From: Candidatus Moraniibacteriota bacterium
GTDB lineage: Bacteria > Patescibacteriota > Minisyncoccia > Moranbacterales > UBA1568
DNA: 64,000 nt
Assembly (NCBI GenBank): GCA_963778555.1
Contig: CAVZUR010000002.1
Location: 37,817-101,816, forward strand
Direction: 5' to 3'
The translations under genes and the position numbers were made by a program. This document shows, in pieces, positions 6,324-60,828 of this stretch. The notes below the pieces were generated by a model. That model made no database searches. It had not been told where the DNA came from and saw nothing but the letters and a program-made list of their open reading frames with translations. Numbering within the stretch: the stretch's first letter is position 1; every line of letters starts with the position of its first letter.

Positions 6324-6370
6324 GTCGCTGCAGCGGACAATGCGCTATAATGAGGCAGCAAGACAAAAAA

Positions 6371-7601
6371 ATGAAAAGATTTTTTTCGTATCTCTTTTTC
6401 CTCCTCCTGACAGCCGGACTGTTCATCGGGGTCTATTGGCTCAATTGGTTCCATCCCGCCATTAATCCGGGCCAGGAAGTGACCTTCGTTGCTGAACAGC
6501 CGTCGAATGAATCTGGTATTATCATCCGCGATGCTCCCGATCCCGAGGGACGCACGCCGGACAAGAATCCGCCCATTCTGGTCGAAGCAATCGCCTCCGG
6601 TTTGGATACGCCGTGGGATTTGGTTTTCACGTCGCCTTCCCGTATTCTCATCACGGAACGGCCGGGACAGATTCGCGTCCTAGAAAACGGCACTTTGCGC
6701 GAAACGCCGCTCCATGTTTTTACAGAAGTCGTAGAGAAAGGCGAGGATGGGTTGATGTCGATCGCAGTTGGTCCTGCATATTCGGAAAATCATTTCCTCT
6801 ACGCCGCGATCGCGTATGGCGAAGCGGATCGGCTCTGGCTGAAAGTCATGCGTTTCATCGATACCGGAAATGCGCTCACTGAACCGTTTACTGTGATTGA
6901 TCGTATCCCAGCCGCTCAGTTCCATGCTGGCTGCCGGATCGCGTTCGGTCCCGACGGGAAGCTTTATGTCACGACGGGTGACGCGACGGACAAGACTCTC
7001 GCTCAGGATCCGGCATCGCTTGCCGGAAAAATTCTCCGCCTCAATAAAGATGGGACGATACCTGACTGACAATCCCTTTGTCGGAAGTGCAGTCTGGTCA
7101 CTCGGCCATCGCAATCCGCAGGGGCTGGCCTGGCAGCCGGAAGCTGGGATTCTGTTTGAAACGGAACATGGTCCTTCGCTTTTCGACGGACCAGCGGGTG
7201 GAGATGAAGTAAATAGAATCGAGAAGGGTGGGAACTATGGTTGGCCCCTGGTTTCGCATGAAAACTCGCGCGAAGGCTTCGTTTCGCCACTGGTCGTCTT
7301 TACGCCGGCCGAAGCGCCCGGCTCGCTCATGATCTATTCTGGTCGGGTCTTTCCGGAGTGGCGGGGCAATCTGTTCTTTGGCGCGCTTAAAGGCGAAGGA
7401 CTCATGCGGATTCGACTGGAGGGGACTGATGCGAAAAAGGTGGCCGCATACGGTAAACTGGGCGAGGTCAAACTCGGCCGCATCCGGGCGGTAGTGGAAG
7501 GGCCGGACGGCAATATCTATTTCACGACGTCCAACCGTGATGGGCGCGGCCAGCCCGCGCCACTTGATGACCGCATCTTCCGCATCCGAGGCAAGGATTA
7601 G
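6371..7601 (+). CDS. PQQ-dependent soluble aldose sugar dehydrogenase (YliI/SGDH family), frameshifted (fragments 6350..7069 and 6897..7601)
   Basis: Six-bladed beta-propeller SGDH motifs are split over two frames. The reading frame breaks at a tandem CTGA CTGA at 7063-7070. Removing one copy restores '...DGTIPDNPFVG...'. Confidence 0.75.
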
Positions 7602-7712: not shown

Positions 7713-8471
7713 ATGAGTACGTACCTTAAAGGCAAACACGCGCTTGTTCTCGGAGCGAGCGGCGGTATCGGACAGGCGGTGGCGCGCAAGTATGTCGATG
7801 CGGGTGTTTCAGCGCTCAGCATTACCTATAACAGCAAACAGGCTGAAGCGGAGGCGCTCGCCGAAGAATTACGCGCGAAAGGAGTGCGGGTCTTTGTTTC
7901 GGGCATTGATCGCATGAATCCGATGGCGGTGGAACAACTGCTTGAAGCTGCGGTGGCGGCGAACGGCCAGGAGATCGATATTGTCGCCGACAATATCGGC
8001 TACTCGCCTGATACGCCTTTCGCGGACCAGACGCCGGAACTTTGGGCCAAGGTGCTCGCTACCAATCTCATCGGCTGCTATGTATCGACACGCGCTATCG
8101 GCGACCGGATGGTAGCCAAAGGTATCAAGGGTCGTATCGTTGTTGTGACGTCGATCAATGGCCGCCGGACGTTCAGCTCGAATTCCGCGCCCTACGATTC
8201 TTCGAAAGCAGGCCAGGAAGCACTCGTTAAGAACGCGAGCTACTACTATGCGTCATCGGGCATCCACATTAATGCAGTGGCTCCCGGCTGGGTCGATACC
8301 CAGATGAACAAGACAGTCACTGACGAGGACTGGGCGATTGAGCTGCCGAAGATCAAGAGTGGACGGCAGGCAAAGCCAGAAGAGATTGCCAGCCTGATTA
8401 TTTCGCTTTCCGGCGATGCCTCTGACTACGTCTACGGTTCAATCGTCGATATCGAGGGAGCGTACTACTAA
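7713..8471 (+). CDS. SDR-family short-chain dehydrogenase/reductase
   Basis: Rossmann motif 'LGASGGIGQAVA', catalytic 'YDSSKAG', and an upstream GGAG Shine-Dalgarno. Confidence 0.85.
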   Translation: MSTYLKGKHALVLGASGGIGQAVARKYVDAGVSALSITYNSKQAEAEALAEELRAKGVRVFVSGIDRMNPMAVEQLLEAAVAANGQEIDIVADNIGYSPDTPFADQTPELWAKVLATNLIGCYVSTRAIGDRMVAKGIKGRIVVVTSINGRRTFSSNSAPYDSSKAGQEALVKNASYYYASSGIHINAVAPGWVDTQMNKTVTDEDWAIELPKIKSGRQAKPEEIASLIISLSGDASDYVYGSIVDIEGAYY

Positions 8472-36000: not shown

Positions 36001-36354
36001 ATGCGCCTCTATTCCGAGCGTCAAATCCAAAGAAAGCCCTATTTTTCCGGGAAGCTCTGGGAGCCGTATGCCGCCGGCGCCCATGTCGCGGTCGTCGCAC
36101 TCCTGGCGCTGTCGCTCCTCTCGGCGGGCCTGTATGTCTACTCGGTGAATCGGAGCGCGGTCCAAGGTTATGCCATACGAACGCTCGAACAGGAATTGCG
36201 ACAATTAAAGAAGGTGAATACCGAGCTCCGGATTCATGAAGCTGAAGCCCAATCGCTCTCGCGTATCGAGGCCGGCAGTCTTGAACTCCGGATGGAAAAG
36301 GTGGGGACCAGTCATATTATCAATACCCAATCGAACGCCGTCGCTTTCCGCTGA
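36001..36354 (+). CDS. ftsL: cell division protein FtsL-like (single TM + coiled coil)
   Basis: 117 aa with one TM and a coiled coil, located between rsmH and ftsI. Confidence 0.55.
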   Translation: MRLYSERQIQRKPYFSGKLWEPYAAGAHVAVVALLALSLLSAGLYVYSVNRSAVQGYAIRTLEQELRQLKKVNTELRIHEAEAQSLSRIEAGSLELRMEKVGTSHIINTQSNAVAFR

Positions 36355-36364
36355 GTCTCTCCTT

Positions 36365-38128
36365 ATGCCGACCATGCGTGCTCCGCTTCAGCCAGCTTCC
36401 CGTCCGGCTCGTCCGGCAGCGCGCTGGCGGCTGTATTTTTTCCGCGGCGCCCTGTTTCTTTTAGGGTTTGTAATCATCGGCCGACTCTACGTGATTCAAG
36501 TCATTGGCCGGGAGAAATGGGTTGCAATGGCCGAGGGACAACACACGGTGGCCCAGGCGTTGCGAGCGGAACGGGGAAGCATCTCGCTGCGTGAGGGTGC
36601 AGAGAGCTATCCTGTCGCCGTGAATCGCGAATATCGGCTCGTCTACGTTATCCCCAAGCTCGTGGAGGATGTTCCGGGTACCGCGATTACGCTCGCGGCC
36701 GTGCTCGGCGTTGATGAATCGATGGTGCGGGAGAGACTTTCGGACCGAGCTGATCCGTTCGAGATCATCAAAAGGAAAATCAGTCCGGAAGAGGAATCCA
36801 AACTTAGGGAGCTCGATCTGAAAGGCGTCAGTTTTCTGCCCGAGGGATATCGCTATTATCCAGCTGGCGAACTAGCCTCGAAGGTCATCGGCTTCGTCGG
36901 ACCGGGCGATGACGGTGAGATTGGTATTTACGGTGCTGAAGCGAGTTGGAACAGTGAACTTCACGGCCAGGACGGCACTCTCTCCCAAGAGCGAGACGCG
37001 GCTGGCCGTTGGCTCTCGCTGACTGATCGGGAACATGTCGAGCCGAAAGATGGAGAAAGTATTGTCTTGACGATTGATCGCGTCGTCCAGTACGAAGTGG
37101 AAAAGATTCTCAGTGAAGCCCGCGAACGCTTCAATGCCGATGCCGCCTCAGCGATTGTCCTTGAGCCGAAGACGGGGAAGATCCTCGCGCTCGCCGCTGT
37201 GCCGCAGTTCAATCCGAATGAATACGGAAAAACCGAAGATCTCAGTCGCTTCATGAATGCACTCGTCAGTCTGCCATATGAGGCGGGATCGGTGATGAAG
37301 CCGTTCACGATGGCGATCGGCATTGAGGAGGGGAAAGTCAGCCCGAACACGGAATTCATCGACACGGGCGTCGTGAACGAGGCGGGCTATGCTATCCGGA
37401 ACGCCGAAGGGAAAGTCTACGGCCGGAGCTCCATGACTACAGTGCTCGATGAATCGATCAATACCGGCGTCATGTTCGTCGAGCGCCTCGTCGGCCCGGC
37501 GGCGTTCCGTGAAGGGTTGAAGAATTTCGGTTTTGGTTCCCGAACCGGCATTCGACTGCCAGCGGAGCATGCCGGGAATCTGCGCAATCTCGATAACTTG
37601 AAATCCACGATCCAGTTCCTGACGGCATCTTTCGGCCAAGGCATCACGGTGACGCCGCTCCAGCTCGCGATGGCGTATGGAGTACTCGCGAATGACGGCA
37701 TCCTCATGAAGCCGCAGATCGTTGAACGCATCACGGACCGGAATGGCGCGACGCGGACACTGGAACCCACGGAAGTGCGGCGAGTACTCTCCCAAGCGAC
37801 GGCGCGCACGGTTGGCGAAATGCTGCGGAGTGTTGTCGTCAACGGCCACGGGAAACGAGCGGATGTGCCTGGGTATCTCGTCGGGGGTAAGACGGGGACC
37901 GCTCAGGTGGCGAAATCCAATGCCCAGGGTTATGAGGAAAACATCACCATCGGGTCATTCGCCGGTTATGCGCCGATCAACGATCCGCGTTATGTTATCG
38001 TCGTGAAGTTTGACAATCCGCGAGACGTCCAGTGGGCCGAATCGAGCGCCGCGCCGACGTTCGGCGCCATCATGCGATTCTTGCTCTCGTATGCTACAGT
38101 ACCGACGACCGAAACCATCAAGCCATAA
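36365..38128 (+). CDS. ftsI: peptidoglycan D,D-transpeptidase FtsI / PBP2-class penicillin-binding protein
   Basis: SxxK 'SVMKPFT', SxN 'SIN' and 'KTGTA' motifs, plus an N-terminal TM and a PBP dimerisation domain. The start is the first ATG (36365) before the TM. Confidence 0.85.
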   Translation: MPTMRAPLQPASRPARPAARWRLYFFRGALFLLGFVIIGRLYVIQVIGREKWVAMAEGQHTVAQALRAERGSISLREGAESYPVAVNREYRLVYVIPKLVEDVPGTAITLAAVLGVDESMVRERLSDRADPFEIIKRKISPEEESKLRELDLKGVSFLPEGYRYYPAGELASKVIGFVGPGDDGEIGIYGAEASWNSELHGQDGTLSQERDAAGRWLSLTDREHVEPKDGESIVLTIDRVVQYEVEKILSEARERFNADAASAIVLEPKTGKILALAAVPQFNPNEYGKTEDLSRFMNALVSLPYEAGSVMKPFTMAIGIEEGKVSPNTEFIDTGVVNEAGYAIRNAEGKVYGRSSMTTVLDESINTGVMFVERLVGPAAFREGLKNFGFGSRTGIRLPAEHAGNLRNLDNLKSTIQFLTASFGQGITVTPLQLAMAYGVLANDGILMKPQIVERITDRNGATRTLEPTEVRRVLSQATARTVGEMLRSVVVNGHGKRADVPGYLVGGKTGTAQVAKSNAQGYEENITIGSFAGYAPINDPRYVIVVKFDNPRDVQWAESSAAPTFGAIMRFLLSYATVPTTETIKP

Positions 38129-56340: not shown

Positions 56341-57310
56341 ATGTCCTCACACCGCCAAACGATCGCTCTCATCCTCCTCTTCGGTATCGCGGCACCGGCG
56401 TATTTCGGTTATTCAGCCGTGATGCAGGCGGTGCTGGTTGAAGAAGCGAGCGTGTTCATTGTTCCGCTCCTCTGGTTCGTCCTTACTCTGACCGTTTTTT
56501 CAACGGGTGCAGTCTTGTGGCAGGGGATAGCGGAACGGAGCATGGCGAGCGGACTTCTCATCCTGCCGAGCATGTTTTTTGCCCCTTCGCTCATGCATGG
56601 AGCCGTCATCTTGGTCGCAGCTCTCATCGTGTTCGGCGGACTGCTTCGTATCAGCCGCGAGCTTGCTTCGAGACTCCGTTTTTCAGTGTACCGCAGTGTC
56701 TTTGTAGGGCTGGCACAGATTATCTTTGCGCTCTCGCTGGTGATATCGAGCCAGTACTACGTTCATGTCGACACGCTTTCCTGGGACCGACTGGTGCCGA
56801 GTTTCGATTTGGGTGAAGGCACTGGCGCCTGGCTCTTGCGAACTATTGGTACGGTCTCGCCTTCGCTGGTGTCGCTTCAGGACCGCGAACTCTCGGTGGA
56901 CGGATTTCTCCGTGAAGTTCGGCCCGTTCAATCTAGCGACGAGTCACTCGGTCTCGAGAAGAGCGTCGTGGAAGCAGTGCGTCAAGCGGAAACCATGCGT
57001 TCAAAGACTGAGCTTTCACGGCTTCTGGGGCGCGAGGTGGGCGGGGATGAAAAAATGAATGAAATCCTCTCTGAGGTGCTGAGAAAAAAAGTGATTGCGT
57101 TCGTTTCTGGTGGAACGCCAACGGCCTCAGGAAATGTACCGTTCCTACCTTTCTTCCTTGCCATTCTCCTCTTTTTTTACCGTCTATCCGCTCGGCTCCA
57201 TCCTGGTACCCATCGTGCTGTCTTGCTCGACGGTCATATTGGCTGTTGGTATCCGCAGTGGGCTTATTGTTTTGAAGAAGATTCCGGCCGAGCGCGAGGT
57301 CATCGTGTAA
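56341..57310 (+). CDS. hypothetical polytopic membrane protein, frameshifted in a T7 homopolymer (57170-57176)
   Basis: ORF 56341..57339 turns Arg/Cys/Trp-rich after the T7 run. The +1 frame (ORF 57095..57310) continues TM-like: 'VYPLGSILVPIVLSCSTVILAVGIRSGLIVLKKIPAEREVIV*'. Confidence 0.55.
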
Positions 57311-57371
57311 GGATTGTTGAAGTCTGCCCACGGACGTAGCAAGGGGAGAGCTGGAAGTTGACAGGATACTT

Positions 57372-57398
57372 TTAGCACTCGATAATAGAGAGTGCTAA
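57372..57398 (+). promoter_or_regulatory. CIRCE element (HrcA operator) TTAGCACTC-N9-GAGTGCTAA overlapping a TTGACA-17-GATAAT promoter
   Basis: Exact match to the CIRCE consensus inverted repeat. It lies 9-35 nt upstream of the dnaJ start codon. The -35 TTGACA is at 57354-57359 and the -10 GATAAT at 57381-57386. Confidence 0.8.
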
Positions 57399-57406
57399 GA
57401 CTGATT

Positions 57407-58498
57407 ATGGCAAAAGACTACTATTCTATCCTTGGCGTCGCGAAATCGGCGAGTGCCGACGACATCAAAAAGGCCTACCGAAAGCTGGCGCATACTCACC
57501 ACCCCGATAAGCAGGGCGGAAACGAGGCGAAGTTCAAGGAGATTAATGAGGCCTATGGTGTTCTGGGGGACGCGGGTAAGCGACAACAGTATGACCGATT
57601 CGGCCAGACATCTTCCCAGGCAGGGGGGGCGTCGGGCGCGGGCTTCGGCGGTTTTGATTTTGGTGGTTTCTCGGCTCAAGGCGGTTCGGCAACGGATTTC
57701 AATTTCGGCGGAGCGAATATGGAGGATCTCTTTGCTGATCTTTTCACAGGCGGCGGTGGGCGTCGTCGGAGCAGTCGCGGTGCTGATATCCAAGTCGATG
57801 TGACGCTCAGTTTCGAAGAAATGGTGCATGGGGCCGCACGCACAGTCAGGCTCCGTAAACTGAGTGTCTGTTCAGTGTGCCATGGCAAAGGCGGGGCGCC
57901 GCAGGCCAAAGAAGAAACCTGCTCTGCCTGTCACGGCAAGGGTTCGACGATGAAGAATATCAACACGATACTCGGTACCTTTGCCCAGTCGGTCCCGTGT
58001 GCACGCTGTCAGGGAAAAGGGAAGACGTATAGCCAGGCGTGTAAACAGTGTCATGGGCACGGGCGAGCAGAGGAAGAGACAGCAAAGGAGGTGAACATTC
58101 CTCCCGGGATTGAAGATGGTCAGGCGCTGTCGGTGGCGGGGGAAGGTGTGGCAGGGGAATTCGGCGCGCCAGCCGGTGATCTCTATGTCCTCGTCCACGT
58201 TGAAGCGCATCCGGATTTCGTTCGGCACGGCGATGATATCGTAACTGAGGTCGCGCTCCGTTTCGACCAATTCGCCTTGGGCGATAAAGTCCCTGTGAAA
58301 ACGATAGAGGGCGAAGTGGACATGAAAGTCCCGGCAGGTACGCAGCCGGGCGAAGTGTTCCGTATCCGCGGAAAAGGCATACCGAAACTTGGTCGCTTCG
58401 GGCGTGGCGATCAGCTCGTGAAGACCTCGATCGTCATACCGCGCCATCTCTCCTCTGAGGCGAAACGTCAGATCGAAAGCCTCCGGGGCACGCTCTAG
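57407..58498 (+). CDS. dnaJ: molecular chaperone DnaJ
   Basis: J domain 'YYSILGV...HPDK', a G/F region, and four CxxCxGxG zinc motifs. Confidence 0.9.
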
Positions 58499-58560
58499 AG
58501 CAGAATGCAAGCCATCGGTTTTTAGAGTACAATGAAGAGCAGATTGTATGAAATCACCCT

Positions 58561-59115
58561 ATGAATAATGAACAGATTCGGCTGCTTCTCATTGATGACG
58601 ATTCCGACACCCGGGACATCTACGGTCAGTACTTTCGAGACGCCGGATTCCAATTGGACGAAGCAGAAAATGGAGCTGAAGGATTGGAGCGGATTCAGGC
58701 GGCGAAGCCCGATATCATCATCAGCGGCATTATCATGCCAAAAATGGATGGCTTTGAGTTGGTGGAGCGATTGAAACAAGATCCTGAAACGGCTCAGATT
58801 CCAATAATCTTTCTCTCGCATCTCGGCCGGCAGGACGACCAACATCGATCGAAAGAGCTCGGCGTGGACGACTTTATCGTCCGCGACACGACGCCGATAA
58901 AGGAGATTGTCACGCGCATCAAGGTGCTGCTTTCAGCGCAAGAATATATCCTCGCGATCGAGCAGAACAGTTTCGATGCAAAGCGCTTCGCAGCCGATAT
59001 GGGATTGCCAGAAAATTTCGCGAGCTCGGATGGTGTGAATGGCCGCTATGTTCTCCGGCTTCGCTTGGTCGACGCTGCCCAGCGCCGTTTCGGCGGCGAG
59101 ATCATCAGTGCCTGA
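58561..59115 (+). CDS. response regulator receiver domain protein (orphan, CheY-like with ~60-aa non-HTH C-terminal tail)
   Basis: 'LLLIDDDSDTRD' and 'DIIISGIIMPKMDGFEL'. No cognate kinase is present in the window. Confidence 0.75.
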   Translation: MNNEQIRLLLIDDDSDTRDIYGQYFRDAGFQLDEAENGAEGLERIQAAKPDIIISGIIMPKMDGFELVERLKQDPETAQIPIIFLSHLGRQDDQHRSKELGVDDFIVRDTTPIKEIVTRIKVLLSAQEYILAIEQNSFDAKRFAADMGLPENFASSDGVNGRYVLRLRLVDAAQRRFGGEIISA

Positions 59116-59127
59116 AGTACACTATTC

Positions 59128-60828
59128 ATGGATCGCGTCTGGAAGGAAAAACCGGGATTTATCCGATATACGGCCCCACGCGGGCCGTCTTCTATCACTC
59201 AGGAATTGCTCCAACAGCGCGGAATCGCACCGGAAGCGACAGAGACATTCCTGTTTCCGGACTATGACCGCGATCTCCACGATCCCTTCCTTTTTCGCGA
59301 TATGGAGAAAGTTGTGACGCGGATCGATGCCGCCCGGCAGCACGGGGAGTGCATAGGTGTCTTTGGTGATTTTGATGCGGATGGCGTCACTGCATCAGTC
59401 ATCATGCGAGAAGCGCTCGAAGCGCTCGGGATTGATGTATTGGTCCACATCCCTCACAAGATTGATGAAGGTCATGGACTGAGCATCAAGGCTGTCGATC
59501 GTTTCAGGGAAGCGGGTGTACGAATTATTCTGACGCTCGACTGCGGCATGATGAATCATCGGGAGGTGGCGCTCGCCCGTGCTTCGGGTATGGAGACGAT
59601 CATCATCGACCATCACCATGTGCCCGAAGTCTTGCCGGAGGCGTTCGCGATCGTGAATCCGAAGCTGCCGGCCGATTCGTACCCATTCCGTGAATTATGT
59701 GGCGCCGGCACCACTTTCAAGGTTGCAACGGCCCTCTATCGGCGCCTCATTCCAGAGCGTGTCGACGAGCTGAAGTGGTTCTTGGATGTTGCCGCGATCG
59801 GAACGGTCGCAGATGTCATGCCGCTCATCGGCGAGAACCGCGTGCTGGTGAAGTATGGTCTGATTGTCCTCCAGAAAACCCGTCGTCCCGGTCTGCGCGA
59901 GATGTATGCCGTCGGGCGAATTCCGATCGATGATAGCCATATTCCTGACGCCCGCATGATTGCTTTCCAGATCGCGCCGCGTATCAATGCAGCCTCGCGG
60001 ATGGCGCATGCCGAGACGGCTCACGCGCTGCTCGTGACCGCTGACGTGGTGCAGGCCCGGCTGCTCGCCCTGGAATTGGAGAGCTATAATAGCGCGCGCC
60101 AAAAAGTGAGCCAGAAGGCAGCGGAAGCAGTCCATGAAGTCGCAGCTGATCATTTTTCGGATGAGAAATTCGTTATCGCGATCGGCCCGGAATATCCACT
60201 CGGTGTCGTAGGCCTGGTCGCCGGAAAAGTCGCGCGTGAGCTTGGCAAGCCGACCGGGGTGTTTCAGCGCGGAGCAGTGACCAGCACGGGGTCGTTTCGG
60301 AGCATCCCAGGCTTTAATGTGATTGAAGCATTGGAAACGTGTGCTGATCTTTTTGAGAAATTTGGCGGACACGATCAGGCTGCAGGACTGACCATCAAGA
60401 ATGAACGGATGCAAAATTTTCTCGAACGGTTTCGATTGATTGTGAACGAGCGCTTGCGGGGAGTCGAAACCGGACCCGAACTCCTCATTGACGCGGAGAT
60501 CCACCCCGATGATCTTTCCGGAGAATTAGTGCGCGTCATGGGCCAACTCGCGCCGTTTGGTGAGGGCAATCCAGAGCCCATCTTCCGTCTTTCCGGACTT
60601 GAAATTATGCATGCCCGGACAGTTGGTAAGGATGGCAAGCACTGGAAACTCAGCCTGCGCCCTGCGGCCGGGTCGGGGACGTTCGATGCGGTTGGCTGGT
60701 CTTTGACCGCGCCGTATCCGGATCTCGGACCAGGAGACGCGCTCTCCATCGTTTGTCAACTTGAGGAGAATTTCTGGAATGGACAGACGAAGCTTCAGTT
60801 GAAATTGCTTGATCTCCGTAAGCTGTAG
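59128..60828 (+). CDS. recJ: single-stranded-DNA-specific exonuclease RecJ
   Basis: DHH motifs 'VFGDFDADGVTA' and 'IIIDHHH', a DHHA1 domain and a C-terminal OB-like domain. Confidence 0.9.
   Translation: MDRVWKEKPGFIRYTAPRGPSSITQELLQQRGIAPEATETFLFPDYDRDLHDPFLFRDMEKVVTRIDAARQHGECIGVFGDFDADGVTASVIMREALEALGIDVLVHIPHKIDEGHGLSIKAVDRFREAGVRIILTLDCGMMNHREVALARASGMETIIIDHHHVPEVLPEAFAIVNPKLPADSYPFRELCGAGTTFKVATALYRRLIPERVDELKWFLDVAAIGTVADVMPLIGENRVLVKYGLIVLQKTRRPGLREMYAVGRIPIDDSHIPDARMIAFQIAPRINAASRMAHAETAHALLVTADVVQARLLALELESYNSARQKVSQKAAEAVHEVAADHFSDEKFVIAIGPEYPLGVVGLVAGKVARELGKPTGVFQRGAVTSTGSFRSIPGFNVIEALETCADLFEKFGGHDQAAGLTIKNERMQNFLERFRLIVNERLRGVETGPELLIDAEIHPDDLSGELVRVMGQLAPFGEGNPEPIFRLSGLEIMHARTVGKDGKHWKLSLRPAAGSGTFDAVGWSLTAPYPDLGPGDALSIVCQLEENFWNGQTKLQLKLLDLRKL

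Follow-up and report, generated by a model that had tools for sequence, protein, structure and literature searches.

A CIRCE operator interleaved with a predicted promoter upstream of a detached dnaJ gene in Candidatus Moraniibacteriota

In Bacillus subtilis, dnaJ is located inside a chaperone operon without an operator of its own. The operator lies between the transcription start site and the start codon, so that it is also present in the mRNA, and CIRCE in this leader position influences mRNA stability as well. Titration of GroEL by unfolded proteins inactivates the repressor, HrcA. For the two B. subtilis targets of CIRCE and HrcA, hrcA-grpE-dnaK-dnaJ and groESL, PMC4585701 cites Zuber and Schumann (1994). 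The CIRCE motif of Lactococcus lactis is found upstream of dnaJ and also of hrcA and groES (PMC3547956), and hrcA-grpE-dnaK, dnaJ and groES-groEL form separate units according to PMC3164122, which cites van Asseldonk (1993). In Geobacter sulfurreducens, CIRCE is located upstream of rpoH (PMC545781).

Here we describe a CIRCE element in the genome of an ultra-small, uncultured Candidatus Moraniibacteriota bacterium; the window, i.e. the whole stretch of DNA that was analysed, is 64 kb long. It contains a single exact match to TTAGCACTC-N9-GAGTGCTAA, at 57372-57398 on the plus strand, with the sequence TTAGCACTCGATAATAGAGAGTGCTAA. Both the left arm TTAGCACTC (57372-57380) and the right arm GAGTGCTAA (57390-57398) are free of mismatches, so that the inverted repeat agrees with the consensus at 18 of 18 positions around a 9-nt spacer, GATAATAGA (57381-57389). 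The perfect operator proposed in the first-pass annotation is therefore accurate to the base. A perfect match is expected by chance about 2e-6 times in an analytic estimate (2 x 64000/4^18), and none of 100 dinucleotide-preserving shuffles of the window produced a match, even when 3 mismatches were allowed. The relaxed search of the window itself yields one further site, at 8218, which has 3 mismatches and lies within a coding region, and is treated as noise. An independent Logan assembly of run ERR11593397 (4715 nt, L001) is identical to the window save for one base elsewhere, indicating that the CIRCE site is no assembly artefact.

The element is located in the 5' region of a chaperone gene, ending 8 nt before the ATG of dnaJ (57407-58498, plus strand). 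The start codon is this ATG at 57407, not the GTG at 57392 given by the ORF lister. The encoded protein of 363 aa is a type I Hsp40, matching Pfam PF00226, PF00684 and PF01556 and scoring 392 bits against TIGR02349, the bacterial DnaJ equivalog (cutoff 377). It is composed of a J domain with the HPD motif, a G/F-rich linker, four CxxCxGxG repeats and the C-terminal domains; HHPDK and CKQCHGHG are visible in the translation.

The position of dnaJ between a membrane-protein gene and a response regulator, as first described from the letters, is borne out by ORF and Pfam annotation. The membrane-protein gene (56341-57310, plus strand) has no Pfam family, adjoins dnaJ on its upstream side and is the conserved partner of the CIRCE-dnaJ unit across the clade; yceG/mltG, yjbQ, trx and lepA are found further upstream. 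On the other side, dnaJ is followed by a receiver-domain-only response regulator (58561-59115, plus strand) and by recJ (59128-60828, plus strand; DHH/DHHA1/RecJ_OB), a context gene here, and then by an RNase H-like gene, an HlyD-like gene and an ABC ATPase. No Pfam domain is found in the C-terminal extension of about 60 aa that the response regulator carries. Elsewhere the window contains PilM/T2SSF, MurJ, DUF4012 and rml genes, and nearly all genes are on one strand. This gene content, together with the relatives described below, assigns the window to the Patescibacteria, the closest named genomes being those of Candidatus Moraniibacteriota.

Two genes of the window appear to be disrupted. 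The membrane-protein gene upstream of dnaJ shows an apparent frameshift near 57140-57180, between the frames 56341-57339 and 57095-57310. Its homolog in one relative (L075) aligns to residues 1-267 only (56341-57138), and the conserved C-terminus, which ends in AEREVIV, is located in the other frame, terminating at 57310. The frameshift probably occurred at a T7 run around 57171, and the sequence is unchanged in the independent Logan assembly. A PQQ-type glucose/sorbosone dehydrogenase gene (PF07995) is split into overlapping frames, 6350-7069 and 6897-7601, at about 7055 (ctgaCTGAcaat), and is either a frameshifted pseudogene or the result of a sequencing error.

No HrcA, GrpE, DnaK or GroEL was found by Pfam among all window ORFs of at least 300 aa and a subset of those of 150-300 aa. 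When the whole window was searched by tblastn with CPR references for HrcA, GrpE, DnaK, GroES, GroEL and ClpB, dnaJ alone matched. Both searches thus agree with the earlier statement that the window holds no hrcA, grpE or dnaK. A 630-aa ORF of DnaK-like length (36236-38128) was rejected as DnaK, being a penicillin-binding protein by Pfam.

The operator overlaps a predicted promoter. A -35 hexamer TTGACA (57358-57363, plus strand), a 17-nt spacer and a -10 hexamer GATAAT (57381-57386) together match the consensus at 11 of 12 positions. This is the best promoter-like site in the region of 54-62.5 kb; in the whole window, both strands included, there are three sites of 11/12, and the dnaJ site is one of them (tied best). 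The first-pass annotation called operator and promoter interleaved, and the term is accurate because GATAAT opens the CIRCE spacer, taking up six of its nine bases: reading downstream, the last part of the promoter spacer is occupied by the left arm, after which come the -10 hexamer, in the CIRCE loop, and the right arm. Judging from the standard distance between a -10 box and its start site, transcription of dnaJ would begin at about 57393-57395, approximately 7 nt past the -10 hexamer and within the right arm. The predicted leader is then about 13 nt long, with no obvious Shine-Dalgarno sequence, as is likewise the case at the neighbouring genes. The sequence data support the view that the element is a CIRCE apparently merged with a sigma-70-type promoter, and that the gene immediately behind it is a genuine dnaJ. 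In the L. lactis locus known from 1993, the operator is said to lie downstream of the promoter core, whereas here it is wrapped round the promoter hexamer.

Comparison with the described systems places the locus close to what is known. The CIRCE consensus is identical to that of B. subtilis, and both systems would share a sigma-A/sigma-70 promoter, predicted in the window, and the negative control of class I chaperone genes. The autoregulated hrcA comes first in the B. subtilis operon, and it does so in most CPR loci. Differences from B. subtilis are the location of the -10 hexamer of the window in the CIRCE loop and a CPR HrcA that is shorter by about 90 aa. The L. lactis dnaJ is likewise separated from hrcA-grpE-dnaK and provided with its own CIRCE, and is co-expressed with groES/EL, dnaK and hrcA; however, L. 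lactis belongs to the Bacillota and the present organism to the Patescibacteria. The G. sulfurreducens rpoH is an instance of the perfect CIRCE sites that occur routinely at single genes outside the groESL and dnaK operons, but the target gene is a different one, and proteobacteria combine HrcA with sigma-32.

Relatives of the element were retrieved by scanning one genome per GTDB species for a CIRCE whose spacer begins with nATAAT. At least 120 loci were obtained, and the window's own genome is absent among the 120 matches listed. At least five of the six bases of TTGACA are present at 16-18 nt from the loop hexamer in 56 of the 120 listed loci, compared with about 1.4% expected by chance. 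These 56 loci are overwhelmingly from Patescibacteria (Peregrinibacteria/Peribacteria, Uhrbacteria, Moraniibacteriota, Gracilibacteria and Magasanikiibacteriota), joined by some doubtfully labelled MAGs. Among the matches listed, 48 of the 56 precede dnaK (14), clpB (11), hrcA (10), groES (9) or dnaJ (4). The hrcA loci run on as hrcA-grpE-dnaK, sometimes with dnaJ thereafter, and nine of the ten hrcA genes encode a short form of about 235 aa. Because many listed CPR loci share the arrangement in front of chaperone genes or hrcA, the predicted placement of the -10 hexamer within the loop of CIRCE is widespread among CPR bacteria as a promoter-operator design and is not peculiar to this locus.

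The same scan provides two further observations. CPR-type CIRCE promoters also precede genes that are not classical chaperones at three places (L120:1607-2034, L023:3740-4141 and L030:1132-1868), where they are followed by a 23S-rRNA-intervening-sequence/bAvd-like protein gene (PF05635, in an Uhrbacteria MAG) and by two ORFs without Pfam family; these three genes may be additional members of the HrcA regulon. Eight TPA MAGs (L025, L027, L030, L075, L081, L085, L088 and L105) are labelled as Gammaproteobacteria or Bdellovibrionales and carry CPR-type short hrcA operons or the full Moranbacteria synteny with the window, and their labels look wrong.

The four dnaJ cases come from two loci assigned to Moraniibacteriota (L007 and L040) and two labelled Bdellovibrionales (L075 and L085). 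Within their 8-kb loci, they share with the window the gene order yceG-membrane gene-dnaJ-(response regulator)-recJ-rnhA-hlyD-ABC. Further upstream, trx and yjbQ are present in L007, L040 and L085, and lepA in L085 only. The proteins of the four relatives are about 50% to 94% identical to those of the window, with 65-69% for DnaJ and about 60-64% for the membrane protein. When the intergenic regions of the five genomes are aligned, conservation is confined to GTTGACA, the two arms and GATAAT; no alignment is possible for the 8 nt that separate the -35 hexamer from CIRCE, for the last three bases of the loop or for anything upstream. CIRCE is thus kept at the orthologous position while its flanks diverge, in a comparison whose four closest relatives were retrieved by the motif. 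Since a perfect operator was required for retrieval, the perfect arms in these four relatives are partly an ascertainment effect. TTGACA was not in the search pattern, and the invariance of the -35 hexamer is therefore independent evidence.

To this set we add 80 loci that were retrieved from JGI/ENA metagenomes by DnaJ protein (39-56% identity), without regard to the operator, sorted by the gene upstream of dnaJ and scanned for CIRCE. A homolog of the window's membrane protein is directly upstream in seven loci, all seven of which carry a CIRCE in the gap, with at most one mismatch. Another or unknown gene is found upstream in 39 loci, and a CIRCE with 2 mismatches is present in the gap of two of these (L131 and L132). 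In two loci there is too little upstream sequence to judge, and no CIRCE is seen in the gap. The remaining 32 loci have dnaK directly upstream. The full CIRCE-hrcA-grpE-dnaK-dnaJ operon is present in about 35 of the 80. This canonical CPR operon (L125, L129, L134, L135, L138, L142 and others) is from the same superphylum and has the same operator and a short HrcA, and its dnaJ is orthologous to that of the window, with 39-46% identity. It differs in that dnaJ follows dnaK with no CIRCE directly upstream (0 of 32), whereas the dnaJ of the window is detached and has its own operator-promoter. As read from these gene orders, most CPR relatives possess the canonical operon, and the detached dnaJ carries its own predicted operator.

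The closest unbiased relative (L122, 54-56% identity) retains the gene order of the window from lepA to hlyD on an 11.6-kb contig, with an extra gap of about 760 nt between yjbQ and yceG. It is the sole unbiased close relative with full synteny, and it has a CIRCE with 1 mismatch and a promoter design different from that of the window. In two other loci (L128 and L131), hrcA-grpE-dnaK is located 2-3 kb upstream of a CIRCE-bearing dnaJ, and intermediate relatives have the membrane-protein gene between dnaK and dnaJ. The simplest history is that the membrane-protein gene came to lie between dnaK and dnaJ, breaking up the ancestral CPR operon, and that dnaJ either gained or kept an operator for itself; in the sublineage of the window, the pair of membrane-protein gene and dnaJ now follows lepA-trx-yjbQ-yceG, away from hrcA. 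The pairing of the two genes might reflect a functional link.

Two promoter/operator designs can be distinguished among these loci. The window and its four closest relatives have a perfect palindrome, with the -10 hexamer in the loop and TTGACA 17 nt upstream. The right arm of the unbiased relatives is GATTGCTAA throughout, with GATTGCCAA in L131, and the variant TTAGCACTC-N9-GATTGCTAA is located upstream of dnaJ in L122-L124, L128, L131, L133, L145 and L183. The G-to-T change in the variant right arm creates TTGCTA, which is -35-like. The best -10-like hexamer is found exactly 17 nt past TTGCTA in all eight loci, and in seven of them it is a TGn extended -10. It appears that the variant right arm also serves as the -35 box. 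Whichever design is present, bound HrcA would overlap one of the core elements of the promoter. The design with the -10 in the loop is found in the clade of the window and also at dnaK, groES, clpB and hrcA in Peregrinibacteria, Uhrbacteria, Gracilibacteria and others. We consider it an evenly balanced proposition that CPR bacteria have reshaped the HrcA system into two compact promoter-operator fusions, one with the -10 in the loop and one with an arm as the -35, which would be read by a truncated HrcA of about 240 aa and give near-leaderless transcripts. If this is true, Moranbacteria would provide, in the switch of design at their orthologous dnaJ, a natural case of operator and promoter evolving together.

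The identity of the CPR repressor is given by Pfam PF01628 and by the alignment of residues 1-117 to the Thermotoga maritima HrcA (1STZ; E = 2e-20). The short CPR proteins were taken from L005, L019, L027, L033, L071, L072, L096, L105, L109 and L131 and from the proteins P0001-P0120. They are 231-256 aa long, compared with 338-345 aa in T. maritima and in Clostridium loci. About 90 C-terminal residues are missing or diverged in comparison with Thermotoga/Clostridium. A search with the HrcA of L131 gave 3303 homologs, and many among the best 120 are from named Candidatus Moranbacteria MAGs. The HrcA of the GC-rich sublineage of the window was not found among the best 120 of the 3303, all of which are from AT-rich Moranbacteria (amino-acid bias). 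We infer that hrcA is present in this genome.

From what the element's sequence, position and conservation show, and from the context of the regulon in relatives, we hold it to be highly probable that the element works as an HrcA operator built into the sigma-70-type promoter of dnaJ, through which the detached gene, with an operator of its own, would be repressed by HrcA and derepressed under stress. An HrcA dimer bound to both arms would cover the -10 hexamer and the presumed start site, blocking the binding of RNA polymerase or the formation of the open complex. Repression would then occur by occlusion, not by a roadblock or an mRNA hairpin. Upon heat or proteotoxic stress, HrcA would become inactive, and dnaJ would be induced together with hrcA-grpE-dnaK, groESL and clpB. 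If the B. subtilis model holds here, unfolded proteins would titrate GroEL, and HrcA would lose its activity as a consequence. That dnaJ has a separate operator is presumably explained by its departure from the CIRCE-hrcA-grpE-dnaK-dnaJ operon in this lineage.

How far the transcript extends is a separate question. The first-pass annotation described dnaJ as stand-alone and monocistronic; the gene is indeed detached from hrcA-grpE-dnaK, but monocistronic transcription is not established because no terminator is predicted after dnaJ. It is possible, though rather doubtful, that heat-inducible transcription from the CIRCE promoter runs on from dnaJ into the response regulator and recJ, and possibly rnhA. 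The response regulator would be the nearest target of such read-through, and the HrcA regulon would, with similarly modest likelihood, take in both a signalling protein and a nuclease of DNA repair. Consistent with a longer transcript, no intrinsic terminator is predicted on the plus strand between dnaJ and recJ, the genes are co-oriented with gaps of 62 nt (dnaJ to response regulator) and 12 nt (response regulator to recJ), and the order dnaJ-response regulator-recJ is kept in L007, L075, L085 (to the end of the locus) and L122. The fold of the intergenic region between dnaJ and the response regulator is weak (-8.2 kcal/mol), and terminators cannot be predicted reliably in CPR, whether the call is positive or negative. 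However, this gap contains a -10-like TACAAT (58528-58533, plus strand), and the box is found as TACAAT or TATACT after dnaJ in six of six genomes (the window, L007, L040, L075, L085 and L122). Its conservation suggests that the downstream genes, the response regulator and recJ, have a promoter of their own. The absence of the response regulator in L040 also speaks against a common transcript.

Another reading is that the site could be a relic, i.e. that hrcA has been lost and the site is now a constitutive promoter that happens to retain the CIRCE arms. The 64-kb window contains no hrcA, and CPR genomes are reduced and have often lost regulators. Nevertheless, we regard this explanation as very unlikely. 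The palindrome is perfect (18/18) in five genomes that differ at the species level, although changes have saturated the intergenic DNA around it, and an equivalent CIRCE-dnaJ site persists down to 45% DnaJ identity. Moreover, the arms add nothing to the promoter consensus in this design, and therefore only operator function explains their conservation. HrcA is also widespread in Moranbacteria and is present in related lineages with the same arrangement at dnaJ (L128 and L131).

The idea that the inverted repeat acts as RNA, either as a terminator or attenuator of the upstream membrane-protein gene or as a stability hairpin of the dnaJ leader, is rejected as the least probable of all: an 11-bp stem can form from the two 9-nt arms and two flanking pairs (centroid -14.5 kcal/mol, z = -2.2), and the leader CIRCE of B. 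subtilis affects mRNA stability too, but the folding z-score is modest, there is no match to an Rfam family, the terminator scan is silent with no T/U tract past the stem (GACTGATTATG), the exact CIRCE sequence is conserved without compensatory changes, and, because the -10 in the loop puts the predicted start inside the right arm, the hairpin would not form in the dnaJ mRNA.

With the reading as an HrcA operator fused to the dnaJ promoter, the locus is an ordinary example of known regulation. Its consensus, target class and logic are those of classical CIRCE/HrcA control, and a stand-alone CIRCE-dnaJ has been known since 1993 in L. lactis. The arrangement is not exceptional because the L. lactis dnaJ has its own CIRCE and because CPR CIRCE promoters precede dnaK, groES, clpB, hrcA and dnaJ singly. 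The details specific to CPR, namely the two fused designs, the short HrcA and the pairing of the membrane-protein gene with dnaJ, appear to be undescribed, since no paper in the literature searched links HrcA or CIRCE with Patescibacteria; they are incremental, and the understanding of heat-shock regulation is unchanged. For this group of organisms, the locus indicates that at least this CPR branch has preserved the classical HrcA/CIRCE circuit, and that dnaJ, on leaving the dnaK operon, kept its co-regulation by means of its own operator. The finding aids the annotation of regulons in unculturable organisms, and the genetics now emerging for Patescibacteria gains from it a promoter that is ready for use and probably stress-inducible.
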